A stretch of DNA of 64,000 nucleotides from positions 64,001 to 128,000 of IMG/VR virus record IMGVR_UViG_3300032234_000388. One strand, 5' to 3'. Position 1 is the stretch's first letter. Each line of letters starts with the position of its first letter. The position numbers and the translations under genes were made by a program. The notes below the pieces were generated by a model. That model searched no databases, had not been told where the DNA came from, and worked only from the letters and a program-made list of their open reading frames with translations. Origin of the DNA: a virus (Duplodnaviria; Caudoviricetes). Of the stretch, positions 5,677 through 64,000 are shown in pieces.

Positions 5677-5708
5677 AAAAAGAAAGGGCACCTAGTGCCC
5701 CCTTCTTT
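5677..5708 (-). terminator. Intrinsic terminator after 5727..7595
   Basis: GGGCAC/GTGCCC stem flanked by A/T tracts. Confidence 0.6.
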
Positions 5709-5726
5709 AGTACTGCCGACGAATTC

Positions 5727-7595: not shown

Positions 7596-7606
7596 AAGTG
7601 TATTTA

Positions 7607-9193: not shown

Positions 9194-9206
9194 ACTTTAT
9201 TTACTG

Positions 9207-9234
9207 AAAAAAATAGGCTCCGAAGAGCCTATTT
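9207..9234 (-). terminator. Intrinsic terminator with C(UUCG)G tetraloop
   Basis: Minus strand AAATAGGCTC-TTCG-GAGCCTATTT followed by a T-run. Confidence 0.85.
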
Positions 9235-9250
9235 GGTTTTATTTATAAAA

Positions 9251-10380: not shown

Positions 10381-10383
10381 TTA

Positions 10384-10950: not shown

Positions 10951-10958
10951 AGTAATAT

Positions 10959-23078: not shown

Positions 23079-23340
23079 AATACACAAATCAGATAGATTT
23101 AAACAAGACTATGAGCGATATTCATCTGCAATATCTCAATTACCCGACAGTGATTTTAAAGATCAAATGAATAACACTCTAACAAAGTTAATAAATGAAA
23201 TTAAAAAATTAGACAGTCTTCATTTAGAAATGGTATACACTAGACAGTTGCCGTCTATGGGAACCGACATCAAATCAACTATTACCGAGTTGAGACGTGA
23301 TCTAGAGACCAATCTCAAACGGTATCTTACTCCCAATTAA
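23068..23340 (+). CDS. Small helical hypothetical protein
   Basis: 90 aa, GGAG SD. Confidence 0.55.
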   Translation: MLNEIHKSDRFKQDYERYSSAISQLPDSDFKDQMNNTLTKLINEIKKLDSLHLEMVYTRQLPSMGTDIKSTITELRRDLETNLKRYLTPN

Positions 23341-26300: not shown

Positions 26301-29300
26301 AGACACTGTCATTAAAGTATCATTAGTTAGTTGAGTAACTACGTGTGTCATTCCCCTAATTACAATTCGATCACCTGTTGCCAACTGTTGTGTAAATCTA
26401 GTATTAGCTCCGGTTACTATATTTGAATTAACGTTAATACTAATAGTTCCTGCTATTTGGAATGTACTTGATCTACGAACAACAGCCATACGTTGGCCAT
26501 CGTATTGCCAGAACATACCGTTTTGATCGTCAAATATACCAGAACGAACTGTTGATCCGTGCCAGTTTTTTATAGACATTTGACATGGACTACCAAGAAC
26601 CGGGCTAGTTGATCCTAATCTTTGTGTTGCTATAAATGACAATTGTCTTTCGTTGCCTATACTTGACACAGTATATGTGCCGTTATATCCAGAGGTAGCA
26701 ACTCCGCTGATTACTATAACTCCTCCTACTTGACATCCGTGATCGGTGTCATCACAAATTATAGTAATAGTGCTGCCAACTGCAGTTCCGTTTGATATAA
26801 TAGTGCGAATATCATAGCTTGGTGCAAATAAAGCACCGGTATTATACATAACACCCTTACCTGATTGATAACGAATATACTTTTTACTCATACGAATTGC
26901 GGTAGCACCGTGTGCTGGACCAGCAGTGCCTAGTTGTACTCCGCCGTCGAACGGTCTATGTATAAAAAATGAGTCTGGTCGGCCAAATAAATTGCCTACT
27001 AATGTATTATCAACAAGGCCAGCACCTCGAGCTGTATATCTTAAAGTTGTTGGGGTTGGAACTTGTTCTACAAAAAATGGACCGGCTGCTAGTTGGGCAT
27101 TAGTACCAGAGCTTGTAATTGATGTCGTGATAGTGTTTCCAGGAATAAATCCATGAGCAGATGCAAAGGTAACTTCGATGGTAGCAATAGCAGAAAAATT
27201 GATTCCAGTGTTGTCGCTGAGTATTTGTGCAGTAGTAGGTTCGCTAATAGTAATAGCACTGATAAAGTTTCTTGAGGGTGCAGTAACTGCAGTTCCAGAA
27301 ATCGATACCGTTTGAATTACTCCACCTGCAGTAATTGTTGCTACTTGAATAGTTGCTTGTGTAAATAATGACTGAACTTCAAACGTTCCGCCAGCAGCGC
27401 CATCTTGTACAACAGTTACAACATCAGTTGCAGCATAACCAGAACCTGAATTTACAATAGTCACTGAAGCTATGCCACCGCTGCCGTCGTCTACAATGTC
27501 AACAATACAGCCAGTGCCGCCTCCTGAACTTGTTGTGACTAATCCAGCTGCTGTAGAATAGCCTGTCCCTGCTACAATGTTAGTTGAGGCAGCAATTCTT
27601 CCAGCTGCTCCAATAGTAATTGTTTCCCCAATTGCATATCCCTGTCCAGGTGAATTTATTGCAACGGTATCTATAATGCCGCTGGTTTGTGTAATATCAA
27701 CTGTAAGGCCAGTGCCGCTGCCTGAGCTGGTGGTGATCACTGCAGACGAATTACTATATCCTGTGCCGCCGGCTAATGATGCAGCATTTAATGTTGCTAC
27801 ACTATCAACAGGTGTGGCCGAAGTAACTGTAATTGTTGCGTTGTTTGCAGGGGCGGCTCCGCCTAACGCAGTTCCAGCAATTAATATAGTATCATTAGCT
27901 ACATATCCAGACCCTGGAGTAGATGTAGTAACAGCATATGTTGGTGTTCGAGATACACTAAACACTGCTCCAACACCGTTACCTGATGTTGATCCTGATA
28001 ATCCTGCAAATGTTTGCGTTGTTCCTCGTATATTAGTTGTAATGCCGCCGCTAAGTGTAACAACATTACCTGTAACGTCAGTAACTCGAACCGCTACACC
28101 GTCACCTCGATCAAATATCAATCCCGGTCCAATACCTGTTGTGCTAGTAACTGTAAGAGTATTGTCACCGGTGGTGGCATTTGACAATAATGTAGTAGAA
28201 GCTGCAGTGCCGCCTGCGCCTGTTACCGCTGTAATTTGAGACCCGCCAACCACTCCTGTGCCGGTTAACGGTGCTCCTATCGGAGGTGGTGCTGAACTAA
28301 ATCCTATTGAAGTACTACCAATAGGAGTGATTAAACTTGTAGTAATAGTTCCAGAACTACCGTTTGATAAAACATTAAATGATGGTAGTCCGACTGCAGA
28401 GCCGGTATAATAACCGCCCTTTCTTAATTGTGTATATGTACTAGCTAGAATTTCTCCGTCTGTTGTACCCACTTTTGCTTTGGCAAAAAATGTAAATGTT
28501 GATGTTGTTGGCACAGTAGATACTAAGAAACTGCCTTCACCACGACTAAATCCTTGTACAGAATTACTCAATGCTTTAATTGTAATAGGATCTCCAGGAA
28601 GTAATCCGTGATTTCCAATAGTTGTTACTGTTATCTGACTAGCTCCAATGCCGGTAGGTGCGCTGGCATTTGTAACTACGTTAACAACAGGAATTTCTGT
28701 TCCCGGAATTTCGTAGATTGAAGGATAATTGCGCATCAATCCAATTGCTTGCCACTTGGTCGGTTGTAGTCCATACTCAAAGTCAGCGTCAAGCATACTT
28801 TGCGGAATGCCAACCCGTTGACGTTCCATAGCATCAGTAGCTATGGAATTCATTCTAACAATTTGTTCTTTACCTTCAACAAAAATTTGTATGTTGTCGG
28901 TGACCATCATGTTACTTGTGTCAATGTCAAAAGTAACTGTGGTGATTTTATCTACACCGTACAGTGCTCCTGGAAAACTTGTATCAAGAGTTTCAGTATA
29001 TGTAATTTCAGCAGCTAGTCTATCATCGGCAAAATTATACATGATGATATTTCTTGAGGCATTTGTGATCAATAACAAATCTTTGATCTTAAAATACCCT
29101 GGCATTTTAATATAGCCGCGATTTGAAATTTTTGTTGGTACGGCAGCCAGTCCGTTTTCGATTACCTCGAGGATAATATTACTAAGTTCTTTAACTCTTG
29201 TAGCGGCAAATACTTCAACGTTGGCTTCAAAATCGATTACTTGACTAACAAGTATTTGTCTATTAGAAAAAACAGTATTTGTTAAAATAAAGTTTTCTAT

Positions 29301-30179
29301 TAAATCTCGAATGAAGGTATGAGCAACTATTTCTGGTTGGCGATCACCGTCAACCTGTGCTACCCCATTTTCCCAATATTTTTCAGCATTAAAAATTGTT
29401 TGACGATTACCACCGCGTTTAAAATCGCTGATATAACCTTCTAATATATAACTTATATCACGTCTACATTTTTCTACATTATAAGTGTAGTTCACATAAG
29501 GAGAAATATTATTAGCTGAATTAAATTGTATAAAGGCTATTGCCTCTTCTTGAATAAATCGTTTATTAGCTTCAATCAGTGTTACTGCATTCAATAGCAG
29601 CGTATTATTTTGACTGCTAGGGGCAACCGGGTCGGGCAATGCGCTCAGGCCAGTGTCAATGGTATCGATTAAAAAGTCAGCTAATGTTGTAATTTCAGCA
29701 ATACTTTGTAGACCGCCTGCTGTTGGCAGTATAACTTGAGATACATCTTCAAGATTTAATGGGGTGGCAAGAGTGTTAGTTAAAATATTTGTTATAATTA
29801 ACGATTTTAAATAGGTATGGGTGTCAACTTCAACATCAGTAGACACCACTTGAACAACTCCGTCAATATAATAATTTGAGGCAACCGCATACGTTAATGA
29901 ATTTCCTCCATAGGTCAAATCATAAATGAATGCGTCTAACACATATCCGGTATCTCTTCTACATTTTGTTTCTCTAGTGGGTCCATATACATAATTAAAA
30001 TAAGGACTTAGTGCGTTGTCGGCATTGAGAGCAATTTGATTTTTTATATACTGACTCATTTCTTCTATTATAAAATTTTTATTTGCTGTCAGTAATGCAA
30101 CTGCATCGGTGTATTGTCCGAATGCTGGAGGCACTACTCCTGGAAAAAATTTATAATTTTGAATTTGCTTCTTTGCCAT
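23337..30179 (-). CDS. Giant virion structural/fibre protein (2280 aa) with two N-terminal phycobiliprotein-like helical repeats
   Basis: Thr/Gly/Ser-rich beta repeats (GxGYxxxDxITI); KCRRD motifs at Cys73 and Cys238; C-terminal repeats of about 92 aa. Confidence 0.75.
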   Translation of the reverse strand: MAKKQIQNYKFFPGVVPPAFGQYTDAVALLTANKNFIIEEMSQYIKNQIALNADNALSPYFNYVYGPTRETKCRRDTGYVLDAFIYDLTYGGNSLTYAVASNYYIDGVVQVVSTDVEVDTHTYLKSLIITNILTNTLATPLNLEDVSQVILPTAGGLQSIAEITTLADFLIDTIDTGLSALPDPVAPSSQNNTLLLNAVTLIEANKRFIQEEAIAFIQFNSANNISPYVNYTYNVEKCRRDISYILEGYISDFKRGGNRQTIFNAEKYWENGVAQVDGDRQPEIVAHTFIRDLIENFILTNTVFSNRQILVSQVIDFEANVEVFAATRVKELSNIILEVIENGLAAVPTKISNRGYIKMPGYFKIKDLLLITNASRNIIMYNFADDRLAAEITYTETLDTSFPGALYGVDKITTVTFDIDTSNMMVTDNIQIFVEGKEQIVRMNSIATDAMERQRVGIPQSMLDADFEYGLQPTKWQAIGLMRNYPSIYEIPGTEIPVVNVVTNASAPTGIGASQITVTTIGNHGLLPGDPITIKALSNSVQGFSRGEGSFLVSTVPTTSTFTFFAKAKVGTTDGEILASTYTQLRKGGYYTGSAVGLPSFNVLSNGSSGTITTSLITPIGSTSIGFSSAPPPIGAPLTGTGVVGGSQITAVTGAGGTAASTTLLSNATTGDNTLTVTSTTGIGPGLIFDRGDGVAVRVTDVTGNVVTLSGGITTNIRGTTQTFAGLSGSTSGNGVGAVFSVSRTPTYAVTTSTPGSGYVANDTILIAGTALGGAAPANNATITVTSATPVDSVATLNAASLAGGTGYSNSSAVITTSSGSGTGLTVDITQTSGIIDTVAINSPGQGYAIGETITIGAAGRIAASTNIVAGTGYSTAAGLVTTSSGGGTGCIVDIVDDGSGGIASVTIVNSGSGYAATDVVTVVQDGAAGGTFEVQSLFTQATIQVATITAGGVIQTVSISGTAVTAPSRNFISAITISEPTTAQILSDNTGINFSAIATIEVTFASAHGFIPGNTITTSITSSGTNAQLAAGPFFVEQVPTPTTLRYTARGAGLVDNTLVGNLFGRPDSFFIHRPFDGGVQLGTAGPAHGATAIRMSKKYIRYQSGKGVMYNTGALFAPSYDIRTIISNGTAVGSTITIICDDTDHGCQVGGVIVISGVATSGYNGTYTVSSIGNERQLSFIATQRLGSTSPVLGSPCQMSIKNWHGSTVRSGIFDDQNGMFWQYDGQRMAVVRRSSTFQIAGTISINVNSNIVTGANTRFTQQLATGDRIVIRGMTHVVTQLTNDTLMTVSPDYRGVTNVSSVKITKVQDLIVPQEDWNLDTCNGAGPSGYNLDVTKMQMIGIQHTWYGAGFIDFMLRGSDGNYLFVHRFRNSNVNSEAYMRTGNQPVRYEVINEGARGRLNAAMTSNQTTIPMSAEDLYWFPNSGTVYIDNELISFTGNNGSALTGCTRAANLTQFVSGSTRTFSAGVATLHTERTGVVLISNTITPIISHWGSAFMIDGQFDSDRGYIFNYAATAISATLEKNTAFLIRLAPSVSNAVIGDLGDRELLNRAQLLLSSIAISSDTVAGGGAIVVEGVLNPINYPINPANITWTGLSSQAAGGQPSFAQIAAGGSVTWSGDVRQTTATVQGAFTTTLTAPSFTPVTNALTAISFNTTTTPVTAASFGQTITALGQANGQPYGNNSYVRAVDTTRSDVLISNTQFDSLATPLAVNDTITGTGVNSTIQSITRGYLGGTFTRIVLNNLPSISSAPGAGQNVTLQVNGTYGRALSASRNDFLITQSSFAALTSTIGNTDGLSATTFLVGGQTISSVTPNFITIAGVSYARIIMSGNASANSNLAASNGAQNVAVTITIRASQTYNTAISASRNDFLITQTQFAGSTIAATDVLTAITFLTGGQTISSVTPNFVTVAGTAYARVIMSANGSTTSTAGAGNNISVTSTSAVTATYGRAFSTSRSDFLVTDSSIAGSGIVVSDVLSIAPGNSVTLASVAITGTAGQFSCTSTTLSVGQRVTITGTFGGTGSISGYSSGTQYFIVATNGSTTFTLSTTEGGGGVTTTAGTPTGLTYTLTTFINAGQTITSIIPSFVNIGGTNYTRVIMSAPANASSATGSGNNITVTVTAAGTAASYVNRNFLFFTSASWLSSGAVVGTRIATSVTSFPAGTAVNTVETRTYGATTIYRVTFSQSANTTINASSTITWQFGALYALPGEQVFSFIANPGESGELSLESLKELTATAIGGRGAFPNGPDVLAINVYKVSGSPTNTSVILRWGEAQA
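23830..25120 (-). repeat. Intragenic tandem domain repeats of about 92 aa
   Basis: (S/T)R(N/S)D(F/V)L(I/V)...TI(S/Q/T)S(V/I)...(Y/F)xR(I/V)(I/V) about 4 times; 33-nt exact repeat at 24451-24483 and 24727-24759 (276 nt apart). Confidence 0.8.
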
Positions 30180-48898: not shown

Positions 48899-48910
48899 AT
48901 TTTTCCTAGA

Positions 48911-49768: not shown

Positions 49769-49776
49769 AGTTATTC

Positions 49777-50628
49777 TTAGAAATAGTTAGTTACAACAAC
49801 AATGCCCGGACGACCGTCAGATCCGCGGTGCCCGTGAAAGTGTGCTCCAGCTCCGCCCGTCCCTGGCGAGGTATGACTTTGATGATTGTGTGCAAAATTG
49901 CCGCCCTGAGGATGGCTGCTAGGTGCGCCTCCGCCAAAGAATGTATCTGCACAACTTTGTGCGCTTCGGGCATGGTGACTAAATCCGCTACCTTGGTGCA
50001 TGTTTAAATTTCCGCCGCTGCCAACGCCACTAACTCCGCCCGAGTGTTGATTTTGTCTATTGGCTCCGTGGCCGCCGCTAGCTGATAAGAAAGAACCAAA
50101 ACTACAACCACCAGCATTGCCGCCCGCATTAGCATAAAATGTTCCACCACCGCCACCGTCAATGGTTATACCTACCGAGCTAATTCCAGTTACGTCAAGA
50201 TACCGTTCGCAGTATCCGCCAGCAGCTCCACCTTCTCCGTGGCCGCTGCCGCCTCCTCCTGATCCCTGTAATTGAACTTTAATGTATCTAACTCCTGCTG
50301 GTCGATTCCATGTTGACGACCCAGTAAATACTTGAATACTAGCAATCCCGTGATTACTAGCAACAGGGTTAGTTCCGTCACTGTAAAACGCTCTAAATGC
50401 TCCAGGTAATGATGTGGTTCCTAGTCCGCCTTTGTTTACAGGCAAAGTTCCAGTAACAACTGTTGTAGTAGTATTAACTGCGCTGGTAGCTAATTTTGAA
50501 GAATCAATAGCACCAAGGGCTATTTTTCCTGCAGTAATTGACGTATTAGCTAAATCTGCGGTGTCAATAGAACCATCAATAAACGATGCTCCTGTTAAAT
50601 TCCGTAGACTCTGATAATTAAACGGCAT
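49777..50628 (-). CDS. Gly/His-rich fibre-tip/adhesin-like protein, paralog A
   Basis: Collinear with paralogs B and C; MPFNYQ start; HNHQSH, HFHGHRG. Confidence 0.7.
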   Translation of the reverse strand: MPFNYQSLRNLTGASFIDGSIDTADLANTSITAGKIALGAIDSSKLATSAVNTTTTVVTGTLPVNKGGLGTTSLPGAFRAFYSDGTNPVASNHGIASIQVFTGSSTWNRPAGVRYIKVQLQGSGGGGSGHGEGGAAGGYCERYLDVTGISSVGITIDGGGGGTFYANAGGNAGGCSFGSFLSASGGHGANRQNQHSGGVSGVGSGGNLNMHQGSGFSHHARSAQSCADTFFGGGAPSSHPQGGNFAHNHQSHTSPGTGGAGAHFHGHRGSDGRPGIVVVTNYF

Positions 50629-51450: not shown

Positions 51451-54400
51451 TTATGTAAGCATCATTGACATTGCTAAAGGTATTCCGGTAACGCCAGCTC
51501 TAAATTCAAATGTAGCCTTCATTTGTATTGCTGAAGCTGTGACGGTAGTAATTTGATTACCTGCAATGTATATACTACCAGCTGTTACGCTATTTACGTT
51601 TAAGGATGCGCCACCGCCACCAATTTGTGATGCAATATATGCTTTAATTGCTCGCTGTGTTGGAACTACATTATCACTATTTGAAGTAAAGAACGGATCA
51701 GTTGAGAATTCAGTAATCGACGCTGAACCGCCACCTAACGTAATATTTCCTAAAGTAAGTTCTTGTAGACCAGCAATATTAAACGCATCAGCATTTAATG
51801 TTGCAACACCTGTGGACTGCTCAATTGTAAACAAGTCGCCAACTCTAAAATTACCGTCTTGGTCAGTCGACGTAAAGAACACACGACCACCATTATTGTC
51901 TACTGTTTCGTTGGCTTGAACAGGCAACTGTGTTGGTAAGTTTGGATAATTAGTTTCATCAAAATTACCTGTACCGATATCTAAGAAATCGTGACCTGTT
52001 AAACGAACCTGACTATATCGTATTCTAGTAGTAGCTCCATCTAAGTGATTTGGTGGGCTAAATCTCTTCATATCTGGAGCAATCTGGAAGAATGCTCTAT
52101 AGTCGCCGGGTATTGTTCCTAATTGTGTTAATACCTGAACTAGTTTAAATGTTTGATCCGGTAAATGAGCAAACACTACGTTTGATCCAGCAACTGGGAA
52201 TTTAGTTAATCGTTTAACTGATATAAACTGTCCGTCTTGGAAGAAATCTCCGTAGCCGTCACCTGTTAATATTTCTGCTTCAGCAGCAACATATCCTGTT
52301 CCTCTATTAACAAATGAAGGATTAGCAATTGCACCATTGCCTGTTCTGACTAAAAACGGTGCTTCAAAAATATTGTTAGGATCAGTGATTGTCATTGTTG
52401 GTGCTGAAGTGTATCCAGAACCCGGTTCTAACATTCTAATAGCAAATATTTTTTCTTGTGCTACATATGCTCTTGCACGGGCTGTAGCTCCAACTAGTAT
52501 TTGACTTGCTACTGTCGAAGCTGTGCCACGCTGTATTGCTACCCATCTGCCTGATTGGTTAGGATTACCAAATATACATGCGCTAAATCCATTGGCTGCT
52601 GTACTGGTTGTTCTTGAAGTCCATACAATACCGTCTTCAGAACTAGCTGCTTGTGTGCTTTGACTTACTGCTAAGAACACTCCTTGACCGTATCTAACAT
52701 CAGTATACTGTGCCGAAGGTATAACACTAGCTGTCCAAATTTGACCTGTTAAGCTGTATGCAGCAGTTGTTCCGCTTGAATTAGAAACTGCAACGAATCT
52801 ATTATTACCCCAAGACACAGAAGTCCAGTTAGAAGATGCTGGCAATACTTTTTCAGTCCATGTTGCGCCGTTGTCAGTTGACACCGCAGCAACAGCTCCG
52901 CCGGATGCTACGGCTATCCAATTACCGCCGCCGTATGCAATTCCAGACCAAGTAGTGCTTTGAGGCAAGTTGCCACCAGTCAACCATGTTTGTCCGCCGT
53001 TTGAGCTATATGCTGTGGAGTTTGATCCGCTACGTACAGCGACCCATAGGCCGTTGCCGTAAGCAATTGCACTCCAAGTGCCTGTTGTCGGCAACGCTGC
53101 GCCCGAAGTCCAAGTTATTCCGCCATCAGTAGAATATGCGTTAGCAGTGCCGCCTGAACTAATAGCGACCATACTGTGAGCCATTGGAATAGCAGTTCCC
53201 GAACCAGCACCGACTGCTGTTGCTATAAAGATTCTACCTACTACGTCCGCTGAAGAACCAATTGCGGTAAATGCTGTGGTACCAACTGTGACTATTTTAT
53301 AGGCAGTGCCAACTACAAATGATCCTGCGTTAACTATTGTTCTATCTTCTCCGGATGCAATTGCTGTCCAGCTAGCAGTACTTGGCAAAGCATTAAGTCT
53401 TTCAGTCCAAGTAATTCCATCAACACTGGTGTTAATTGTTCTCGATCCAGAAGAAATTGCAACATAGTTGCCACCTTGTGCAGTTCCAACAAATTCATAA
53501 GTTAAAATTGCCCCGGTAATTTCATTAACAGCAGTAATTGTTATTGTAATGCTGTTTGTTGGATTTGTTCCAGTAAGTGTTGTTCCTGCAATAGTAATAG
53601 TATCTAATCTAGCATACCCGGTTCCTGCAGTTTTTAATGCAACTGTACTGTATTTGGTTCCTCTTCTAACTACATCAAACGTAGCATTGATTCCAGTGCC
53701 GCTAGTAGTTCCAGATACTCCTAAATATGTTCTATATAAAGGTGCATACCCAACATCTGTATAAGTTTGACTGGTAGCTAGTGTTCTTGCAGTTGAACTA
53801 TAAGTTGGAGCTGTAAATGTAATTCTAGGCTCGATAGTATATGTAGTTGATGCATCAGGTGCTACTATTGTTGTACCTGCAATAATATGATCAAATCCAG
53901 GAGCACCAGTACTTTCTCTAGTAACAGTTGCTACTTTAGTTCCTGCATTGTATGTTGCAATATTAGCAAACTGACCAACGCCTGCGCCACCAGTTAAGTA
54001 AATTCTCATACCTACGTATGCAGATGAAATTTCTTGATCGGTAGCAGCAATTGTGATCTGAGTAGTTGTTCCGCCTTGAGCTGTGTTAGCATTTGATACA
54101 TAACCAAATCCGCCAAAGTTTCCGTCGGATTCTGGAGCAGTAGTACTATCATCAACGCTATCTAATAACCTAACTTCAAAAACTGCACCGTCACGGAATT
54201 CATCTTGCTCTACGCGAGCGTTAGCGCCAGCGCCAGCAATAGTCCATGTAACATCAGTATAGTCAGATCCTGCATTTTCAAATTCAAACTGTAATACATC
54301 GTCAGCAGCATCAGTGAATACTGACCCCACAGTTGATACAAAGTTTCTATTATCAACAACTCCTGTGCCGATAACTTCTGTAGCATCAAAACCTTCAGCT

Positions 54401-57400
54401 ACGGAACCAAAATCTCCGTATGAGTTATTACCGTTGGTAGCACGGATACGTCCGCCGTTTTCAGCAAGATAACCAATATGTGCATAATATGAGAACACTG
54501 AAACTAATTCAGCACGCCCGTTATTGGTAATCCAAGCACCAATACCATCACTAATAACCTGTGTAAAGTCGTTGGAAACTATAGAATCATTACCGCCGTT
54601 GTGCAATGCGCCGTCAATCTTTTGACCAATTGCTGCATGACCGAAGGTAGTTACGTTTTGCACATATGGGGATCTGCTGATAATCCATGTACGGAAATCA
54701 TTTGGTCCCCAACCTGGATCTAACGAAACATACGCACCAGCAGAAACTCTTGATGTTCCGTATTCGTTAGGCGCTAAAAGATCTCCGCTTAGGTCGGCTA
54801 AAGTTTGATTTCTAATTCCAGTACCATTTCTAACATAGTACATGTCCTCTTCAAGACTGCCCATAACTGCATTAGCATAGTATCTTGCAGCCATTCTTGA
54901 TTTGTAATTTCCAGGATACATTAAATCAAATTTCAATGCGTCAATATATGCATGTACGTCTCTTTCGCAAGACGTTGTGCTATAACTCAATGCCACAGTC
55001 ATAGATCCTGTACCGTCGTCCATAATATCAAATGCAGTATTGCTATTTCTTGTGGTAGAAATTGTAAATGTTGTTGAACTTACTACATTCTGAACATAGT
55101 ATGTTGTACCTGCAACTATTCCGCCAAACGTTGTGCCTGTAAATCTTATAGCAGCATTACGTTGCATCCAAGCAGTGCTTGTACAAGTAAAGATATCAGT
55201 TGATGCGGTTGCTGCTGTTACAGTAGTTCTATTGGTAGCACCAATGTAAGCAGTAATTTCAGATACAATATAATCTCTGTTTCTTTCTAATTGTAATCTT
55301 GCATGATCGGCTGCACGAATTGAAGTTTGGCAGACAGATCCCTCATTGGTAGCACTGTAAACGATGTCATCTAATGCGTCCATTAACACACTAATACGTG
55401 CTTGTGCCGTAGCGTTTCCGCCAACGTTTGCCTGTGCCGCTGTTTTAACAAAAGCAAATGCTGCTCTTGTGGCTGCTTTTTGTCCAAGGTCAAACACATC
55501 ACTAGCTGAAGAACGTAGATAAGCATATGCAGCGTTGGTTGTTTGAACATTTGAATTAAACATAAAGTCAAACATAACTGCTTCAAGAATTAATCTTACA
55601 TCGCGCTCACATTTAGTTGAATTATAAACCAATGTTGGATAATTTGTAGAAATAAATGCTGTTGTGTTTGTTACAATAGTTTCTTGTGCAGCATCTAATG
55701 TCTGAGCTGCGGTAATTAATGCTGTTGTTGTGTTTACTCCGTTAGTTGCAACTGGGTAATCGATTACTTCGATATCGATGTCTAATCCAGTACCGTTAAC
55801 AAATGTAGCAAGAGTCGATCCACCGTAAGTGGCCGACAACTGGAATGTACTTCCAGTTAGAGTTCCAACTACCCAATATTTTACTCCAGCAGTCAACCCA
55901 TTGGCAGTTATTTTTGGAACAACTGCATCTCCTATTACTAGACCATGTGATGCTGATGTAAATGTATTGTTTGTAGCAATTTGTGTTACGTTGATCTGCG
56001 GAGTTAATCCTGTAGTCGAATCTCCTGAAATGATATTTGTAACAATATCAATTCCGTTGCCTACAAATGTGCTAGCTAGATTGCCATTAATTAGATACAC
56101 CGATGTCCATTGTGTAGCTGTGTTTCCTGTAGATCGTGTTACTGTTGTATTAGATACGATTTGTTGTAGTACAGTTTTTAATCTACCGTAAGCAGACACT
56201 GTTGCAGCAATTTCAGTTGAATCAATCATTAAGTTTGATCCAGGACCATCATAGTATGCCAAGCCGGCATTTAAAATTTGAGAACGACCACCATAGGTAA
56301 GGTCGTATATCATTGCGTCAACAATGTATCCAATGTCACGTTTACATTTTGTTTTAGAATATTTTACATTCGGAAAATTTTCTGCAATATAAGCAATTAA
56401 TTCAGATTTAACAAATTCTTTGTTTTCTCTTATTAGTGTTCTAGCATCGCCGTATCCTTGCAGGAATCCAACGTTATACCCAACTGGGTCGGCGCTTGAG
56501 AAAAATAATGCGGAACCAGTACTAAAATCAATACGATGTTCCATTACTCGAACCAGTTGTCGAACGGTGCTTACTTCTACAGAACTAGCATACGGCCAAG
56601 CTGCACTTTGAATTGCAGTATTGCCTGAACTTTCTGTAACATTAGTTCCAACAATAATTTGCCCGACTACTGTTTCTAATCTGCTTAGAGCATCTACAGA
56701 ATATTTTACGTCGTCGCGACTGGTTATGATTCCTGCAGGTCCTGCATTAGTTGAACGAACTTCGTCGCCAAGAATAACTGTTTCTGCTGGAACAATAATA
56801 GGTAAAATTTCACGATATCTTCCAGATTTTACATTAATTGTACTGTTAGGCACTGAACGTTCTGGTATACTGCTGCTGCTTAATGTTGATAGTGCATCAA
56901 CAACAATGTTTATTAAACTTACTGCAGTTTCTGTTGTTCCAGTTTCTGCAGCTTTAGCAACGTCTGAAACAAAATGTTGAGCAACAATAGCTGTTGAATC
57001 ATTTAAAACTGATTGATAGGCAACTGCTGGTGCAGTATTTGCCAACACTGCAGTCACAAGCTCAGTCATATATTGATATGCTGCTACACCTTCTTCTTTT
57101 TCTGAAGCTAAGGTTGCATAAGGTACATCTTCTTCTGCTGCTGAGAACGGACCTTCATCCAATACACCTAATAGACTTTGTGCGGCAGCACGAATTTTTA
57201 AATTTCCACCGTGACCAATATCCCAAATAAGTCTATCTACAATATAGCCAACGTCTCTTTCGCACTTGTATTCGTCGTAGTCAAATACAAAATCAATAGT
57301 TAAGCCAGTTCCGTCAACCAATGTTCCGACGGCTGGACCGTTTAATGTTAACGATACTCTAAATGCAGTTGAAGTTAACCCTGCAGAAATAACATAATAA

Positions 57401-59322
57401 TCGCGTTCGCTAATTATACCATTTAATGTAGTCTTGGCTCTAAGTGTGCGACCTGCAATTAATCCGTGATCAGTAGCGGTGTTTAATGTATTACTAGAAG
57501 TTATAGAAGTTGCTATAACTTTACTAAATGGAGATAGATTATTATCAATCTGATATCGAATCCAAGCACTAACTTCTCGTTGTATAAATGCTCGATTTAA
57601 CTCTAGAAGATGTTGTGCGTTTGGATTTCTAGCGCCATTCTCAACTTGTTCACAAGCATATCGAATAGTCTTCCAAGGTTTGTCTAGTGTTCCGCCGTGG
57701 GCTGGGTATGGTGCATCGGTACCGTTTGGAGCAACATAGTACACATGATCTATCTTACCCAATGTTCTCCATTCTGGATCTGTTCCGTTTGAAACTAAAA
57801 CCTGACCTTCTACTCCTACGGGCAATCTTGTTGGGCCTGCGCCACCAAAATAAACCAAGTCGCCTCGAACGCTAAGAATATCAACTTCGCTTCCTAATGA
57901 CAATGAATTCCAATACACTCCGGTAGAGTCTCTGTCCGGTCTGCTATTTGCCTGTCCGCCACCAGTAGCTCCAACTGTTGAACCGTCGTCTGCTTCTGAT
58001 CTATGAGCTAATACACAAATATATGCATTTGAACCAAATCTAACAGCGTCGCCTAACAAATACTCAAAGTCGTCTGCCCACTCCCCTCTCCACTTAATAC
58101 CAGAATTTAGTGTAATCCAATATGCAGCATTTGGAGGTTCTGCTGATACAACTGCGGTCATTGTGCCAGAGGCATTAGCAGTGATATTAAATGTTACACC
58201 GCCTGGTGTGGTACTAACTGTTATATTTCCAGCAGAAACTGTTTTAACATAGTATCTAGCTCCTGTGAACACATTGCCAAATGTAGTACCTGTGAATCTC
58301 ACAGTCATTCCTACTACGATACCAGTTGTGCTGGCAATGGTAAATTGATCGTTTGCTGCTGTTACAGCGGTAACTGTATAGGTGTTTGATGGAGAATCAG
58401 TAGTTGCTAGATATGTGTATCCTCCATAACTAACTACTTCGCCAATCTTGTATGATGTATTATTTGCCCAGTCGGACTGAAATTTTATTCCTTCAGAAAA
58501 TAAATCCCAGTCTGCTGTAATTGTTAATGGATTTGAGCCTGTGCTGATTGTTTTAGCCACATATTGATTTCCGCCATAGCGAACAATATCGCCAGGTTGA
58601 TATGTAGTGCCGATGTTCCAATTATCTTCAAACTCAACACCTTCAACAAATTGACTCCAGAATCCAGAATTAACATCAGTGCTAAAAGTAAGAGCCGCAG
58701 CATGTGCAGTGGTACAAATCCAAAGGCCTGCGCCTTGCTTAACAACGTCATTTAGTTTATAACGTGTAGAAGTAGCCCATGCTCCTTTGTACTGCAATCC
58801 TGGATTAAAATCGTCCCAAGACGATTGATTTCCTTCTAGTCCAACCGAGGCAGTTGATGCAGAAGTGTGTGCAGTATTACAAACATATGTATAACCGCCG
58901 TATCTTACTAAATCGTTTACTTTGTATCGAGTGGCTGTTGACCATGCACCTTTCCAATCAAGACCTTCAGCAAATAATGTCCATTTACTTTGATCATTTT
59001 CTAGTCCAAGGGCAACACTAGCGGCAGAAGTATGGCTATCAGAGCAGATGTATAGTAGTCCGCCGTACTTAACTAAATCGTTAAGTTTGTAAAAGGTAGA
59101 AGTGTTCCAGTCGCCTTTCCATTCTTGACCGTCACTCATCTGATTCCATTTGGAAGGACTGTATTCTAGATCTACATTAAAATCCGCATCTGATGTGTGC
59201 CCAACTGTACAAATATAACTACGACCACCGTATCTAATTACGTCGTCAACGTAGTAAACTGTACCATTTGTCCAGTCGCCTTTCCATACGAATTTTATTC
59301 TACCAAGTTTAAACTCTGCCAT
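51451..59322 (-). CDS. Giant multidomain fibre/adhesin protein (about 2620 aa)
   Basis: Start MAEFKLGRIK at 59322 (GGAG SD); N-terminal WxxxTxYxxxDxVxYGG repeats (CBM5/12-like); YVAPNG...KPWKTI beta-helix entry; four CxRD helical repeats; S.DG.TWT Asp-box propeller repeats. Confidence 0.8.
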   Translation of the reverse strand: MAEFKLGRIKFVWKGDWTNGTVYYVDDVIRYGGRSYICTVGHTSDADFNVDLEYSPSKWNQMSDGQEWKGDWNTSTFYKLNDLVKYGGLLYICSDSHTSAASVALGLENDQSKWTLFAEGLDWKGAWSTATRYKVNDLVRYGGYTYVCNTAHTSASTASVGLEGNQSSWDDFNPGLQYKGAWATSTRYKLNDVVKQGAGLWICTTAHAAALTFSTDVNSGFWSQFVEGVEFEDNWNIGTTYQPGDIVRYGGNQYVAKTISTGSNPLTITADWDLFSEGIKFQSDWANNTSYKIGEVVSYGGYTYLATTDSPSNTYTVTAVTAANDQFTIASTTGIVVGMTVRFTGTTFGNVFTGARYYVKTVSAGNITVSTTPGGVTFNITANASGTMTAVVSAEPPNAAYWITLNSGIKWRGEWADDFEYLLGDAVRFGSNAYICVLAHRSEADDGSTVGATGGGQANSRPDRDSTGVYWNSLSLGSEVDILSVRGDLVYFGGAGPTRLPVGVEGQVLVSNGTDPEWRTLGKIDHVYYVAPNGTDAPYPAHGGTLDKPWKTIRYACEQVENGARNPNAQHLLELNRAFIQREVSAWIRYQIDNNLSPFSKVIATSITSSNTLNTATDHGLIAGRTLRAKTTLNGIISERDYYVISAGLTSTAFRVSLTLNGPAVGTLVDGTGLTIDFVFDYDEYKCERDVGYIVDRLIWDIGHGGNLKIRAAAQSLLGVLDEGPFSAAEEDVPYATLASEKEEGVAAYQYMTELVTAVLANTAPAVAYQSVLNDSTAIVAQHFVSDVAKAAETGTTETAVSLINIVVDALSTLSSSSIPERSVPNSTINVKSGRYREILPIIVPAETVILGDEVRSTNAGPAGIITSRDDVKYSVDALSRLETVVGQIIVGTNVTESSGNTAIQSAAWPYASSVEVSTVRQLVRVMEHRIDFSTGSALFFSSADPVGYNVGFLQGYGDARTLIRENKEFVKSELIAYIAENFPNVKYSKTKCKRDIGYIVDAMIYDLTYGGRSQILNAGLAYYDGPGSNLMIDSTEIAATVSAYGRLKTVLQQIVSNTTVTRSTGNTATQWTSVYLINGNLASTFVGNGIDIVTNIISGDSTTGLTPQINVTQIATNNTFTSASHGLVIGDAVVPKITANGLTAGVKYWVVGTLTGSTFQLSATYGGSTLATFVNGTGLDIDIEVIDYPVATNGVNTTTALITAAQTLDAAQETIVTNTTAFISTNYPTLVYNSTKCERDVRLILEAVMFDFMFNSNVQTTNAAYAYLRSSASDVFDLGQKAATRAAFAFVKTAAQANVGGNATAQARISVLMDALDDIVYSATNEGSVCQTSIRAADHARLQLERNRDYIVSEITAYIGATNRTTVTAATASTDIFTCTSTAWMQRNAAIRFTGTTFGGIVAGTTYYVQNVVSSTTFTISTTRNSNTAFDIMDDGTGSMTVALSYSTTSCERDVHAYIDALKFDLMYPGNYKSRMAARYYANAVMGSLEEDMYYVRNGTGIRNQTLADLSGDLLAPNEYGTSRVSAGAYVSLDPGWGPNDFRTWIISRSPYVQNVTTFGHAAIGQKIDGALHNGGNDSIVSNDFTQVISDGIGAWITNNGRAELVSVFSYYAHIGYLAENGGRIRATNGNNSYGDFGSVAEGFDATEVIGTGVVDNRNFVSTVGSVFTDAADDVLQFEFENAGSDYTDVTWTIAGAGANARVEQDEFRDGAVFEVRLLDSVDDSTTAPESDGNFGGFGYVSNANTAQGGTTTQITIAATDQEISSAYVGMRIYLTGGAGVGQFANIATYNAGTKVATVTRESTGAPGFDHIIAGTTIVAPDASTTYTIEPRITFTAPTYSSTARTLATSQTYTDVGYAPLYRTYLGVSGTTSGTGINATFDVVRRGTKYSTVALKTAGTGYARLDTITIAGTTLTGTNPTNSITITITAVNEITGAILTYEFVGTAQGGNYVAISSGSRTINTSVDGITWTERLNALPSTASWTAIASGEDRTIVNAGSFVVGTAYKIVTVGTTAFTAIGSSADVVGRIFIATAVGAGSGTAIPMAHSMVAISSGGTANAYSTDGGITWTSGAALPTTGTWSAIAYGNGLWVAVRSGSNSTAYSSNGGQTWLTGGNLPQSTTWSGIAYGGGNWIAVASGGAVAAVSTDNGATWTEKVLPASSNWTSVSWGNNRFVAVSNSSGTTAAYSLTGQIWTASVIPSAQYTDVRYGQGVFLAVSQSTQAASSEDGIVWTSRTTSTAANGFSACIFGNPNQSGRWVAIQRGTASTVASQILVGATARARAYVAQEKIFAIRMLEPGSGYTSAPTMTITDPNNIFEAPFLVRTGNGAIANPSFVNRGTGYVAAEAEILTGDGYGDFFQDGQFISVKRLTKFPVAGSNVVFAHLPDQTFKLVQVLTQLGTIPGDYRAFFQIAPDMKRFSPPNHLDGATTRIRYSQVRLTGHDFLDIGTGNFDETNYPNLPTQLPVQANETVDNNGGRVFFTSTDQDGNFRVGDLFTIEQSTGVATLNADAFNIAGLQELTLGNITLGGGSASITEFSTDPFFTSNSDNVVPTQRAIKAYIASQIGGGGASLNVNSVTAGSIYIAGNQITTVTASAIQMKATFEFRAGVTGIPLAMSMMLT
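54479..54660. repeat. Near-identical tract, copy 1 (copy 2 at 62381-62562)
   Basis: 101 nt identical (54479-54579 = 62381-62481) plus 46 nt identical (54593-54638). Confidence 0.9.
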
Positions 59323-59367
59323 TTTCCACTCCAAAATTTATATAGCACGTATATTTATGCATTATTG

Positions 59368-62300: not shown

Positions 62301-64000
62301 CTAGTGTTCCATAATTTCCGTAAGAACTATTACCGTTGGTAGCACGAATTTTTCCACCGTTGTTTGCAAACATTCCGATGTGTGCATAATATGAGAACAC
62401 TGAAACTAATTCAGCACGCCCGTTATTGGTAATCCAAGCACCAATACCATCACTAATAACCTGTGTAAAGTCGTTGGAAACAATAGATTTATTTCCGCCG
62501 TTGTGCAATGCGCCGTCAATCTTTTGACCAATTGCTGCATAACCAAAGGTAGTTACGTTTTGTACGTAGCAGCTTCTTGTAGTGATCCATACTTCTTCGT
62601 GAGATGGTCCCCATCCTGGATCTAACGAAACAAATGCGCCACCGGTTGGTATTTGATACTGTAGAGGCGGTGCCGGATTTGGCAATGTGCCAATTAATCC
62701 AGAAAGTGTCATGTTTCTAATGCCGGTAGCATCTCTAACATAGAACATATCTTCGCCTGCAGAGCCTAATATTAAATTTCTATAATATCTTGCAGCTCTT
62801 AGAGATTTATAATTTCCATCGTATTGTAGATCGTATATCCAAGCATCGATGTATCTAGAGATATCTTTTTGATATCTGTCTAAATCAAATTCGTAAAATG
62901 AGAATTCATCTTGCATGTAAGCTATTGCTTCAGCAATAAAAAACTCTCTATTAAAGTCTAGATAAATTGCAGCATCTAAGAATCCTTGCTCAGTATGTAG
63001 ATTATTACTACCAGTTAATGATGGTTCAGTGATATCTGCATCGTTTATATGATAATTAATATAGTTGATAATTTGTGAAATCAATACTTTAATTGTGTCA
63101 ACTGCTTCTATCGATGCAGACACCGGTCTTAACAATTCTTCACCAATAATTGGGTTTCCAAATTCATCAGTAGTATTTGGTGAAAATTGTGGAGGCACAA
63201 ATGGTACTCGAATATTGTTGACCGGAGTTTCATTATTTCCAGGCGAAGCTGGGGGAGAAACCATAGTAGGTTCTCCTGGAGCGAGCATCTCAGTAATCAA
63301 TACAGATTCAACCATTGATGATATTCTATTTAAAACTGCAATGATATAAGTGCTATCAGAATTTAATGATTCATTTGCAGGATTAGGTTTAACTGTTACT
63401 GATCTTAATTCTTCTCCTCTTACTGCTGTACCTGCTGGAACAACGATTGGTAATATTTCTGTGTAATTACCTGTAGATACTTTAATTGTGTGAAGATATG
63501 TGCTTGTGGGTCTATAGTTTTCTATATATTCGCAGGCAAATCTAATAGTTCTAAAGGGTTTGAATACTGAAAATCCTCGTTGAGGATCAGTAATATCGTC
63601 AGCTGCAACGCTGTCATCTGAGCTAACATAGATTATTTTTTCTATTTCACCCCATTGATTATAAACTAAACTATCCTCAGCATTAGGCATTAACAGTTCG
63701 CCATCAAGTTGAGAGATTCTTACTGGAGTTGTTCCAATAGTACTTGTATCGCCTGCTGCTGTTCTTGAAAAATCAAAAGTTAATAAATCTCCTCTTGTGT
63801 CCATAGCAACATTAGGACCGGCCATTAATATTAAGTCCCAATAATAAAATCCGGAACCGTTGTCGCCTGGATAATTTTCACCACTCGATACGTGAGAAAA
63901 ATTACAACTATACAGACTACCCGCAAAATTTATATAATCGCCAATGAAATACTGAGTATTTGTAATCCAGTTTGCTCTAAAATTAGATCCAACAATTAAA
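59368..64000 (-). CDS. Giant fibre/adhesin paralog of 51451..59322, 5' end outside window
   Basis: Frame stays open upstream of the ORF-track Met to the window end (..FRANWITNTQYFIGDYINFAGSLYSC..); shares QNVTTFG..IGQKIDG, RYSQVR.TGHDFLDIG and VVPTQRAIKAY with the neighbour. Confidence 0.85.
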   Translation of the reverse strand, partial: LIVGSNFRANWITNTQYFIGDYINFAGSLYSCNFSHVSSGENYPGDNGSGFYYWDLILMAGPNVAMDTRGDLLTFDFSRTAAGDTSTIGTTPVRISQLDGELLMPNAEDSLVYNQWGEIEKIIYVSSDDSVAADDITDPQRGFSVFKPFRTIRFACEYIENYRPTSTYLHTIKVSTGNYTEILPIVVPAGTAVRGEELRSVTVKPNPANESLNSDSTYIIAVLNRISSMVESVLITEMLAPGEPTMVSPPASPGNNETPVNNIRVPFVPPQFSPNTTDEFGNPIIGEELLRPVSASIEAVDTIKVLISQIINYINYHINDADITEPSLTGSNNLHTEQGFLDAAIYLDFNREFFIAEAIAYMQDEFSFYEFDLDRYQKDISRYIDAWIYDLQYDGNYKSLRAARYYRNLILGSAGEDMFYVRDATGIRNMTLSGLIGTLPNPAPPLQYQIPTGGAFVSLDPGWGPSHEEVWITTRSCYVQNVTTFGYAAIGQKIDGALHNGGNKSIVSNDFTQVISDGIGAWITNNGRAELVSVFSYYAHIGMFANNGGKIRATNGNSSYGNYGTLADGNDPTESPTFGVINNRLTPATVVSALAGEANDEILLFEFGNAGEQYTTADYTVIGSGVNASVIQEEFRDNAIFEFQVRNSPENIGRTPGGGGYSLIGNNAQSGTSTTITLATSNENTEEELLGLRVIITSGDGTGQYGYVGGFNELTKVVNILKETTGEPGWDHVVQGTPILGALNTSAVYRFEPRLIVDEPPYVVSSSNLITTQTYASIIYGETQETFTAVPADLGSGTTINVIPSQAFFNISKIGRNYTVSLVSGGAGYADEQTLIIPGSLLGGTSPENNITITVKSTSDDSTNSILTFEYEGVGVSGKFIAMPADSNVGRYSYDGTTWTSFTLPSSGDWYNSAAGENTIVAIRYNSDQAASSTNGINWTARSMPATRNWAGIAYGSGIFVAIADDTNIGAYSLNGTSWINTTLPAFGDSTRNEWVDITYGKGKFVAIANSGNTAATGTFANGALTWAPTLMDVSEDSSALDWQSVAYGNQRFVAISSTGQIGYSFDGVTWLPATMPSQDGSTAHFWRRIRYGQGVFFAIGNTGGRDIGEDPTTSPTQFAATSYDGIHWTPRLLSQAANWASLAFGNPDVTLDDSTISNNRPMWVLLSEDFSSQGCKVLTGARALGRVIVESGRVRSVRIWEPGSGYDLAPSYTIIDPNNTTDVYINLRMGDKVLAQPSWINRGVSYKTSNTSVVIRGDGYADIIPNGNFVTIQGVTVLPGPGTQFRFRGEENFFTVTTVEVETQEQDGTYTATFRVSPRLDYDYDLEHGSSVEIRERYSQVRITGHDFLDIGAGNFVDTNYPELYTSGLPFFKAPENEVVEFNGGRVFYTSTDQDGNFRAGELFAVEQSTGVVTISADFFNLEGLTELALGGVRLGGSGAVVREFSTDALFVADSNNVVPTQRAIKAYLQNRLNVGGADLLTASFIAGTVRVGPNLIGNTASLSVLIPIVANFAGIGTYGRPAGMRGSWLAQIMFIKSFKDR
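62381..62562. repeat. Near-identical tract, copy 2
   Basis: See 54479-54660. Confidence 0.9.

Follow-up and report, generated by a model that had tools for sequence, protein, structure and literature searches.

C-x-R-D sites in a giant tail-fibre-type protein of an uncultured jumbo phage mark globin-fold domains remotely homologous to phycobiliproteins

Phycobiliproteins (PF00502) have a globin-like helical core, and the residues Cys84-x-Arg86-Asp87 in helix E form their bilin-attachment triad. ApcE has a loop insertion between helices B and E. The CXRD motif is recognised as a bilin motif both in phycobiliproteins and in the bilin biosynthesis-associated globins (BBAGs) of non-photosynthetic bacteria and cyanobacteria (Rockwell, Martin and Lagarias 2023, PMC10151467). 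BBAGs occur in bilin-making organisms without phycobilisomes and attach bilins to themselves without a lyase (PMC10151467). T-type lyases serve Cys153, not Cys84 (PMC10452541). Bilin genes are also encoded by phages as hemO-pcyX, pebS or pcyA cassettes, and their purpose in phages of phycobilisome-less hosts is an acknowledged open question; the sinks proposed for phage bilins are support of host photosynthesis, phytochromes and BBAGs, and a virion-borne acceptor is not among them (PMC11480375; PMC2984593). According to PMC6628666, adsorption takes place in the light only for P-HM1, P-HM2 and S-PM2, and in the dark for P-SSM2 and P-SSP7.

The window analysed here is a stretch of 64,000 nucleotides (positions 64,001 to 128,000 of IMG/VR record IMGVR_UViG_3300032234_000388) from an uncultured phage of ~360 kb. 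The list of open reading frames and their translations place a giant fibre gene, F2627, at 51451..59334 on the minus strand, encoding 2627 aa from TTG or 2623 aa from the ATG at 59322; the protein P0098 on a 362-kb contig is identical to it. F2627 consists, in this order, of seven CBM_5_12 repeats (Pfam, E 1.3e-33), four phycobiliprotein-like units, a beta-helix, Asp-box-like repeats and a conserved fibre C-terminus. It matched PHROG tail-fibre families with E-values down to 2e-166 (phrog_9851), and a tail sheath gene is present in the same window. Homology to annotated families and location in a structural module identify F2627 as a putative fibre of T4 type or attached to the baseplate, and its presence in the virion is predicted. 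The paralog F1543 (59368-63999, minus strand) is open at its 5' end and is 41% identical to F2627 over 1221 aa, from a degenerate copy of the unit to the C-terminus. Two further domains of the same family, with Cys73 and Cys238 and both with profile-wide matches, are located at the N-terminus (29226..30113, minus strand) of F2280, a putative virion protein of 2280 aa (23337-30179).

C-x-R-D occurs in F2627 at Cys691 (codon 57262-57264), Cys997 (56344-56346), Cys1242 (55609-55611) and Cys1456 (54967-54969), all on the minus strand. Composition alone gives an expectation of 0.028 C.RD motifs, and at least four were obtained in 0 of 20000 shuffles. The four sites mark domains of 115-155 aa with a globin fold, remotely homologous to phycobiliproteins. 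A sequence-only reading had quoted five motif strings from these genes; all were found where it had placed them on the minus strand, its numbers being the low coordinate of each codon, and it had correctly noted that KCKRDIGY is one residue off KCARDIGY, the phycocyanin alpha string.

Copy 2 (56005..56472, minus strand; residues 955-1110, Cys997 in KCKRDIGY) is a complete six-helix globin-fold domain, and copy 3 (55315..55752, minus strand; residues 1195-1340, Cys1242 in KCERDVRL) is a nearly full-length profile match. Copy 1 (56977..57621, minus strand; residues ~572-786, Cys691) begins with the first helix pair, followed by a 78-aa beta-barrel insert, the KCERD helix and the remaining globin core. 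This insert is missing in the orthologs L106-L108, in which the helix and the CxRD part are contiguous. Copy 4 (54865..55332, minus strand; residues ~1335-1490, Cys1456 in SCERD) is a half-domain of two helices, a beta-barrel insert of ~80 aa, the CxRD helix and one further helix, after which the beta-helix begins. The AlphaFold2 model of copy 4 with its orthologs (pLDDT 74) contained helices at 4-17, 19-33, 119-138 and 143-154 and strands at 35-115, which amounts to the first four helices only, and it gave an indecisive structural match to ApcE/allophycocyanin (Z ~8). A helix of the type A..L..N..FI..E had been read as preceding each motif; this stands except at Cys691 and Cys1456, where the helix lies ~85-115 residues upstream with the beta-barrel between. 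In F1543, Y-Q-K-D replaces C-x-R-D (RYQKD, Tyr376 codon 62872-62874) within residues 335-406 (62782..62997, minus strand). The one Cys-less copy claimed for the paralog is thereby located, with the correction that it is a half-domain covering profile positions 4-75. By position it is the ortholog of copy 4, and it belongs to the class in which Cys and Arg were lost together.

An HMM of 142 positions, built exclusively on the copies of L003 and L004, two other phages, detected all seven copies in the window: copies 1 to 4 of F2627 with 49.6, 118.7, 73.4 and 34.3 bits, the F1543 copy with 36.5 bits and the F2280 copies with 60.7 and 79.2 bits. Copies 2 and 3 matched over nearly the whole length (4-123 in copy 3), copy 1 over 38-128 and copy 4 over 37-78. 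Copy 4 and the F1543 copy pass directly into the beta-helix of the fibre and are truncated half-domains under weaker constraint, probably acting as structural caps. The earlier count of six copies retaining Cys in two Cys-poor proteins is numerically correct (F2627 has 13 Cys in 2627 residues), with the qualification that copy 4 is a half-domain under weaker constraint and has C-x-N-D instead of C-x-R-D in distant orthologs.

The AlphaFold2 model of copy 2 (pLDDT 90.3, pTM 0.87) was closest to phycoerythrin 5aqd_M (Z 15.1, rmsd 2.5 over 142 residues; VIA), followed by allophycocyanin 8or7_A (Z 14.5; VIA) and the ApcE bilin domain (Z 13.4; VIA). The best structure matches were all phycobiliproteins (Z 15.1, 14.5, 13.4, 13.4 and 12.5, with 117-142 residues aligned), and in Foldseek the best ~50 were nearly all phycobiliproteins, with TM of 0.62-0.70. 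Heme globin sensors ranked lower (Z 9-12, at most 12.1). A heme globin reading was rejected on these lower Z values and on the lack of a conserved His for heme: in the 146-column profile, His is not a leading residue at any of the well-conserved positions. The model aligned to phycobiliprotein chains from residues ~29-31 to ~164 only, and the tandem period of 115-155 aa includes no extra N-terminal hairpin, so the N-terminal X-Y helices are absent. Without them the phage domain has no alpha/beta heterodimer interface, unlike phycobiliproteins. A search of the ESM Atlas gave no usable match, and a related-loci search started from an alignment found no conserved stretch. The training of AlphaFold may bias its models towards phycobiliprotein folds.

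By sequence the nearest phycobiliprotein was C-phycocyanin alpha. Searching 177,635 PDB sequences with a profile of 44 copies gave 30 matches (best E 0.002). Phycocyanin alpha accounted for 27 of these, with the Cys of the domain on Cys84. A profile-profile comparison by hhalign, which covered CpcA sequences only, gave a probability of 90.6% (E 1.3e-6) for 600 copies against 120 CpcA. PF00502 was matched by 8 of the 44 single copies, and no other Pfam family was matched more than once. Single window copies scored 12-15 bits against PF00502 (copy 3, E 0.04 over profile positions 25-141) and F2627 scored 13.4 bits, with a gathering cut-off of 22.2; multi-copy homologs scored 44-47 bits, reached only by adding weak repeats. 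Because the sequence match is limited to phycocyanin alpha and to ~55-60 columns, much of it is owed to the motif itself.

In both HMMER and hhalign alignments, Cys, Arg and Asp of the domain are in register with Cys84, Arg86 and Asp87. The likeness includes helix B, loop and helix E, which are in register, the pattern K-C-x-R-D-[IV]-G-Y ... Y-x-L-x-x-G-G, and tolerance of an insertion between helices B and E as in ApcE. The domain differs from phycobiliproteins in its own invariant Asp59 and Tyr75, which have no counterpart there, in its arrangement as 4-37 tandem copies inside putative virion fibre proteins of 1.5-6.4 kaa, and in its occurrence in phages, including a jumbo lineage without psbA. 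Thus the earlier description of the units as phycobiliprotein-like held in the profile and the structure checks.

The relatives contribute 1726 copies, in which conservation reaches 97% for Cys, 98% for Arg and 99% for Asp. Orthologs with identities as low as ~33% retain all four C-x-R-D sites of F2627; that of copy 1 was retained in 8 of 8 orthologs checked, and orthologs of copy 3 retain it as well. In 51 Cys-less copies, Arg fell from 99.9% to 29% and Asp from 100% to 65%, accompanied by Tyr40 (90% to 51%) and Thr90 (82% to 38%), while the scaffold residues Asp59 (96%), Asp54 and Asn65 were retained; many of these copies are orthologous to each other, so the coupling overstates the number of independent events. 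The joint loss of Cys with Arg and Asp on a kept scaffold fits one shared candidate ligand site. Selection for ligand attachment, suggested earlier from the retained Cys alone, is supported by this conservation and coupled loss, attachment itself being a prediction.

Repeats of the domain occur in giant proteins of tail-fibre type, both in T4-like cyanophages and in an uncultured lineage of ~350-kb jumbo phages; relatives in IMG/VR number at least 594. In cyanomyoviruses the domain is carried by S-PM2p088, by the 'putative short tail fibre' of S-RSM4 and by the 6000-7300-aa ORFs of Syn9 and P-SSM4, all of them in the module of structural genes; in S-PM2, virion structural proteins are encoded on both sides of the homolog. 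Their records annotate these proteins only as fibre or hypothetical, and no mention of a phycobiliprotein-like domain in the phage proteins was found in annotations or in a literature search of incomplete coverage, which leaves novelty unproven. tblastn with one copy gave matches only in cyanophage records, among 50,697. A cyanophage-specific domain was nevertheless rejected: the sheath protein of the present phage is nearest those of the jumbo phages Phosso, PA5oct and Atu_ph07, and its lineage is without psbA, which was not found in six jumbo relatives. On this evidence the phage is not a typical cyanophage.

G002 (98% complete) and G001 (79%), the most complete of the relatives, have an overlapping hemO-FDBR pair and no psbA. 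Their bilin reductase (FDBR; L104:6108-6800 in the lineage) overlaps the heme oxygenase gene and is 51% identical to the FDBR of the Pelagibacter phage Mosig cassette. Domain and reductase share a genome in both relatives, tens to hundreds of kb apart; in G002 the cassette is at 38 kb and the domains are at 105 kb and 230-251 kb. In the record of the present phage (56% complete), hemO, FDBR, CpeT and psbA were not found; judged by synteny with G001, its cassette would be located ~42 kb ahead of the point where this record starts. No T-type or S-type lyase was found in the jumbo lineage, and the S-type lyase (PF09367) was not found in 8 records. CpeT was present in 12 of 14 domain-bearing cyanomyoviruses and in 0 of 3 without the domain (one-sided Fisher p 0.015, phylogeny not corrected). 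As a dedicated lyase for the domain it was rejected, being absent from all six jumbo relatives and because T-type lyases act on Cys153. Mosig, which has the nearest hemO-FDBR cassette, and P-SSM2, which has an FDBR, are without the domain, so bilin genes need not have this acceptor. A functional link of the fibre genes to the halogenase/oxygenase island that they bracket had been floated earlier; nothing was found connecting the island to the domains, and the hemO and bilin reductase cassette of the near-complete relatives is the better-founded link.

BBAGs resemble this system in having CXRD on a phycobiliprotein-related globin, a likeness drawn from the published motif description and not from BBAG sequences, and the jumbo lineage likewise combines hemO-FDBR with a lack of T- and S-type lyases. 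They differ in being small, stand-alone proteins encoded beside the reductase gene, whereas the phage domain is a fibre repeat far from the cassette. We lean, if slightly, towards the view that each whole-profile domain (copies 1-3) covalently binds a linear tetrapyrrole at its Cys while the fibre is produced in the infected cell. The bilin would be supplied by the phage's own hemO and ferredoxin-dependent bilin reductase cassette, as present in the near-complete relatives; cyanophages would draw it from their host or from phage-encoded pebS or pcyA. Since the jumbo lineage is without T- or S-type lyase, the domain would attach its bilin autocatalytically, in the manner of BBAG globins and ApcE.

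It is a real possibility, short of likely, that a globin derived from phycobiliproteins or BBAGs serves as a rigid helical spacer in the fibre and binds no ligand, Cys, Arg and Asp being kept for fold stability or for packing between domains or trimer chains. Copy numbers of 4, 6, 8 and 10 among orthologs, with a maximum of 37, agree with such use as a building block, as do half-domains and Cys-less copies tolerated in otherwise intact fibres, and the family-specific Asp59 and Tyr75 suggest that constraints other than those on phycobiliproteins are at work. The lack of a lyase in the jumbo lineage also suits a spacer, and coloured or fluorescent virions have not, to our knowledge, been reported for cyanophages. 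However, a spacer does not predict that precisely the three bilin-contact residues should be the most conserved, nor that the constraint on Arg and Asp should be lost only with Cys while the scaffold stays. It would also be unusual for a spacer in Cys-poor extracellular proteins to keep one conserved, unpaired Cys in every domain, and a spacer does not account for hemO-FDBR in a lineage without psbA.

The coupled conservation shows a functional site, whatever its ligand. The pocket might hold a host surface molecule, a metal, an inter-chain disulfide or thioether, or a non-covalent tetrapyrrole, so that the domain would be a receptor-binding or cross-linking module and not a biliprotein. CBM_5_12 repeats, beta-helix and Asp-box-like repeats are in keeping with proteins of fibre or receptor-binding type, and heme globin sensors (Z 9-12) are among the fold neighbours. 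We consider such a ligand improbable, as the 146-position profile has no conserved His for heme ligation, the alignment of the site to the bilin triad stays in register through helix B, loop and helix E, and the bilin pathway is present in the lineage. An unrelated helical domain with a chance or convergent K-C-x-R-D-x-G-Y-like helix, its fold an artefact of motif-driven modelling, could explain the marginal sequence E-values (0.002-0.16) and the restriction of the matches to phycocyanin alpha. This is very improbable: the model matches 117-142 aligned residues, far beyond the motif, its matches include phycoerythrin, allophycocyanin and ApcE, which the sequence profile did not reach, the profile-profile probability is high, and helix order, loop position and insert site between helices B and E all agree.

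Returning to covalent bilin binding, a pigmented fibre could act as a light sensor that gates adsorption, a role we regard as doubtful. Domain matches numbered 6 each in P-HM1 and P-HM2 and 10 in S-PM2, the phages adsorbing in light only, and 0 in P-SSM2 and P-SSP7, a correlation with n=5 phages. S-RSM4 had 13, Syn1 had 8 and most other cyanomyoviruses had 3. The domain is present in 14 of 17 cyanomyoviruses (P-SSM2, S-SM2 and S-SSM7 are without it), so its presence alone cannot explain the light dependence of only some. Still more doubtful is the wider proposal that phage particles carry fibre-bound covalent bilins as adsorption-gating photoreceptors, by which the phage genes hemO, pcyX, pebS, pcyA and perhaps cpeT, unexplained for long, would be virion-maturation genes, instead of or beside helping host photosynthesis.

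If the domains bind bilin, they would form the first pigment-bearing virion structure known to us. They would offer a molecular candidate for the light-only adsorption of some cyanophages (S-PM2, P-HM2), independent of host photosynthesis, and a candidate reason why phages of phycobilisome-less hosts make bilins, a question raised in PMC2984593 and PMC11480375. Were the fibres also photoreceptors, light sensing would reach a psbA-less lineage of jumbo phages that is abundant and may infect hosts other than cyanobacteria. Both questions are testable in cultured phages, with the domain in S-PM2, P-HM1/2 and S-RSM4 and none in P-SSM2, S-SM2 and S-SSM7. Should the domains bind no bilin, they would still clearly illustrate the recruitment of an antenna-protein fold into phage fibres as a modular building block.

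The last 12.5 kb of the window is occupied by two minus-strand genes, the giant fibre gene F2627 (51451-59334, 2627 aa) and its paralog F1543 (59368-63999, 5' end open). The four C-x-R-D strings that the sequence-only reading had quoted from F2627 were confirmed, with minus-strand Cys codons at 57262-57264 (copy 1), 56344-56346 (copy 2), 55609-55611 (copy 3) and 54967-54969 (copy 4), as was the degenerate Cys-less copy of the paralog (RYQKD, Tyr codon at 62872-62874, minus strand). Two further copies were located in the 2280-aa virion protein F2280 (23337-30179). F2627 contains 13 Cys in 2627 residues; 0.028 C.RD strings are expected from its composition, and four or more were reached in 0 of 20000 shuffles. 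An HMM built from copies of two other phages alone detected 7/7 window copies at 34-119 bits. These results indicate that the repeats are real and far beyond chance.

Other repeats were found in and beside these genes. The N-terminal part of F2627 (57895-59307, residues ~10-480) comprises seven CBM_5_12 carbohydrate-binding repeats (W.G.W......Y...D.V.Y.G..Y.C; E 1.3e-33), and one such repeat lies at the start of F1543 (63870-63999). A run of S/T-x-D-G-x-x-W-T units at 52450-53450 (F2627 residues ~1960-2290), with a matching part in F1543 and a weak BNR/Asp-box match, may form a beta-propeller that both proteins share in the distal fibre. Three tandem paralogs of ~284 aa with a Gly_rich_2 domain (PF21722) were found at 48044-50628, between the fibre gene and a gene for a tryptophan halogenase (45798-47408, E 4e-111). 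A functional link between the fibres and the halogenase/oxygenase island, raised as speculative in the sequence-only reading, found no support.

All copies align as a single domain, in which an A..L..N..FI..E..A(Y/F)I-type helix is followed by a loop ending in Y-N/D, by K-C-x-R-D-V-G-Y-I-x-D-A-x-x-Y-D-L-x-Y-G-G-N and by more helices. In the sequence-only reading each of the four F2627 strings was preceded by such a helix; four C-x-R-D copies are present, but copies 1 and 4 carry inserts, and copy 4, which is more weakly constrained, is a half-domain. Nearly the whole profile is covered by copies 2 and 3. In copy 1 a 78-aa insert separates the first helix pair from the CxRD helix; the two parts are contiguous in the closest relatives, where the insert is absent, and the profile match past the insert extends to position 128. 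The similar insert of copy 4 was modelled as a six-stranded beta-barrel (copy 4 model pLDDT 74) and is followed by two helices and then a beta-helix, the profile match being limited to positions 37-78. From profile coverage and this truncation, three F2627 copies have the helices that a pocket would need. Distant orthologs have C-x-N-D in copy 4, and the Y-Q-K-D copy of F1543 occupies the same position, from which the two proteins are 41% identical to the C-terminus (1221 aa). With these corrections on inserts and half-domains, the observation is confirmed.

The barrel of ~78 aa (T..HGL..G..V.....G...G..YYV.....TF.LS) occurs four times in F2627, inserted between helices B and E in copy 1 (57280-57516, residues ~607-685) and copy 4 (54985-55230, residues ~1369-1450), and in similar form at residues ~320-400 and ~1110-1185. 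The copy 4 barrel resembles EF-Tu domain 2 and phage head/tail barrels, among them the phage FCWL1 head-to-tail protein and the phi92 endosialidase barrel (Z 7.5-8.8).

In a relative-rich search, 769 giant proteins of 1.5-4.5 kaa were found, many with a precomputed match to the phycobiliprotein family PF00502. HMMER, run in full against 1.84 billion cluster representatives, gave 1612 proteins at E ≤ 1e-3 (697 at ≤ 1e-30) with up to 37 copies each, in a tandem period of 115-155 aa; the metagenomic proteins P0250 and P0252 (5984 and 6382 aa) have 35-37. As copy number climbs through 4, 6, 8 and 10 among F2627 orthologs and reaches 35-37 elsewhere, the unit is duplicated as a module. The literature searched, which was incomplete, contained no description of this phage domain.

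The phycobiliprotein-like reading was borne out by both profile and structure. PF00502 was the sole Pfam family matched repeatedly, any other being matched at most once; it was matched by 3/7 window copies (E 0.027-0.16) and 8/44 copies overall (best E 2.5e-4). A profile of the 44 copies had 30 matches at E < 10 among all PDB sequences, 27 of them phycocyanin alpha (best E 0.002), and the phage Cys aligned on the bilin-attachment residue Cys84. In hhalign, 600 phage copies matched 120 CpcA sequences with probability 90.6% and E 1.3e-6 over 55 columns, corresponding to helix B, the loop and helix E. Copy 2, modelled by AlphaFold2 from a 44-row alignment without templates, formed a complete six-helix domain (pLDDT 90.3, pTM 0.87), for which the ~50 top Foldseek matches in PDB were nearly all phycobiliproteins (TM 0.62-0.70). 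VIA, run exhaustively on 48,161 chains, placed phycoerythrin at the top (Z 15.1, 142 aligned residues), then allophycocyanin-type chains (14.5, 13.4), the ApcE bilin domain (13.4) and phycoerythrin alpha (12.5), with heme globin sensors beneath. The model aligned only from chain residue ~30 on; unlike phycobiliproteins, the phage domain is a globin core without the X-Y helices. We regard remote homology as established with high confidence, though single-copy sequence scores are marginal and AlphaFold was trained on phycobiliproteins.

Selection on a common Cys-Arg-Asp site, as had been suggested, is supported by conservation and by coupled loss. Over 1726 distinct copies Cys is conserved at 97%, Arg at 98% and Asp at 99%, and C-x-R-D is retained at 4/4 F2627 sites in orthologs to ~33% identity, though flanking residues vary. 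Among 1649 Cys-bearing copies, 2 lack Arg and 0 lack Asp. In these and in 51 Cys-less copies, respectively, Arg47 is present in 99.9% and 29%, Asp48 in 100% and 65%, Tyr40 in 90% and 51%, Thr90 in 82% and 38% and Lys44 in 57% and 24%, whereas the scaffold residues Asp59 (99.8% and 96%), Asp54 (82% and 88%) and Asn65 (82% and 78%) are kept. The Y-Q-K-D copy of F1543 agrees with this pattern. Because several Cys-less copies are mutually orthologous, there were fewer independent events than the nominal p of 6e-60 implies. Judged from sequence, coupled loss is the most telling evidence for a putative ligand site, with a candidate functional set (Tyr40, Lys44, Cys45, Arg47, Asp48, Thr90) separable from the fold set. 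The domain profile has no conserved His, which argues against heme as the ligand. In phycobiliproteins, and also in bilin biosynthesis-associated globins, which bind bilins lyase-free, CXRD is the recognised motif for bilin attachment (PMC10151467). Bilin attachment at the phage Cys is the best-supported mechanism, and we predict it with a slight leaning in its favour; a light-sensing role of the fibre domains, one step further, seems rather unlikely.

Adsorption of cultured phages bears on that role. Domain matches were counted in 17 cyanomyoviruses and two other phages: 13 in S-RSM4, 10 in S-PM2, 8 in Syn1, 6 each in P-HM1 and P-HM2, 4 in S-ShM2, 3 each in S-SM1, P-RSM4, Syn33, Syn19, S-SSM5, P-SSM7, P-SSM4 and Syn9, and 0 in P-SSM2 (NC_006883), S-SM2 (NC_015279), S-SSM7 (NC_015287), the podovirus P-SSP7 and Mosig. 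In the dark P-HM1 and P-HM2 do not adsorb, and P-SSM2 does, if less well; S-PM2 adsorption needs light and not photosynthesis, and that of P-SSP7 is light-independent (PMC6628666). Presence or absence of the domain agrees with this behaviour in 5/5 phages, a small sample. The domain is in 14/17 cyanomyoviruses, so presence alone is insufficient for light dependence, and the three domain-less myoviruses may be one clade. CpeT was found in 12/14 domain-bearing and 0/3 domain-less myoviruses (p 0.015, phylogeny ignored). T-type lyases act at Cys153 (PMC10452541), and the co-occurrence is only a lead. P-SSM2, S-SM2 and S-SSM7, with neither domain nor CpeT, are natural negative controls for pigment and light experiments.

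A tblastn search with one copy matched 226 of 50,697 phage records, all Synechococcus or Prochlorococcus phages and one marine single-cell virus. The phage of this window differs from standard cyanomyoviruses. Its record is 198.7 kb (56% complete), and a fibre identical to F2627 was found on a 362-kb contig. The sheath (14051-17530) is nearest those of the jumbo phages Phosso (Sinorhizobium), PA5oct (Pseudomonas) and Atu_ph07 (Agrobacterium) at 40-46% identity, and has relatives of 59-78% identity on at least 594 IMG/VR contigs. The phage thus comes from a lineage of T4-like jumbo phages of ~350 kb that is abundant and uncultured. Six larger relatives (G001-G006) have 5-9 domain matches each; psbA is absent from 6/6, including G002 (353 kb, 98% complete), and neither CpeT nor CpeS was found among them.

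Both of the most complete relatives, G001 and G002, have an overlapping gene pair for heme oxygenase (hemO) and a ferredoxin-dependent bilin reductase (FDBR). The reductase is 51% identical to that of the hemO-pcyX-type cassette of Pelagibacter phage Mosig, versus only 22-30% to cyanophage pcyA. In G002 (L104, G002:C1:32000-45000, 2557-11037) genes for DnaK, Hsp20 and ClpS come before the pair. After it, beyond an unassigned 474-aa ORF, lie genes for CsgF, CsgG and a curlin-repeat protein, which make up a set for curli secretion, here carried by a phage. The window's own record, 56% complete, has no hemO, FDBR, CpeT or psbA; if gene order follows that of G001, the cassette would be expected ~42 kb ahead of its start. 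Mosig with a cassette and P-SSM2 with an FDBR are counter-examples, the domain being absent from both. Published work leaves open what such phage bilin cassettes are for (PMC11480375; PMC2984593). The lack of psbA in six relatives implies that the host may not be a cyanobacterium. Together, the hemO-FDBR pair, the domain and the absent psbA point to a lineage without this photosystem gene that is predicted to make bilins and builds its fibres from domains keeping a bilin site.
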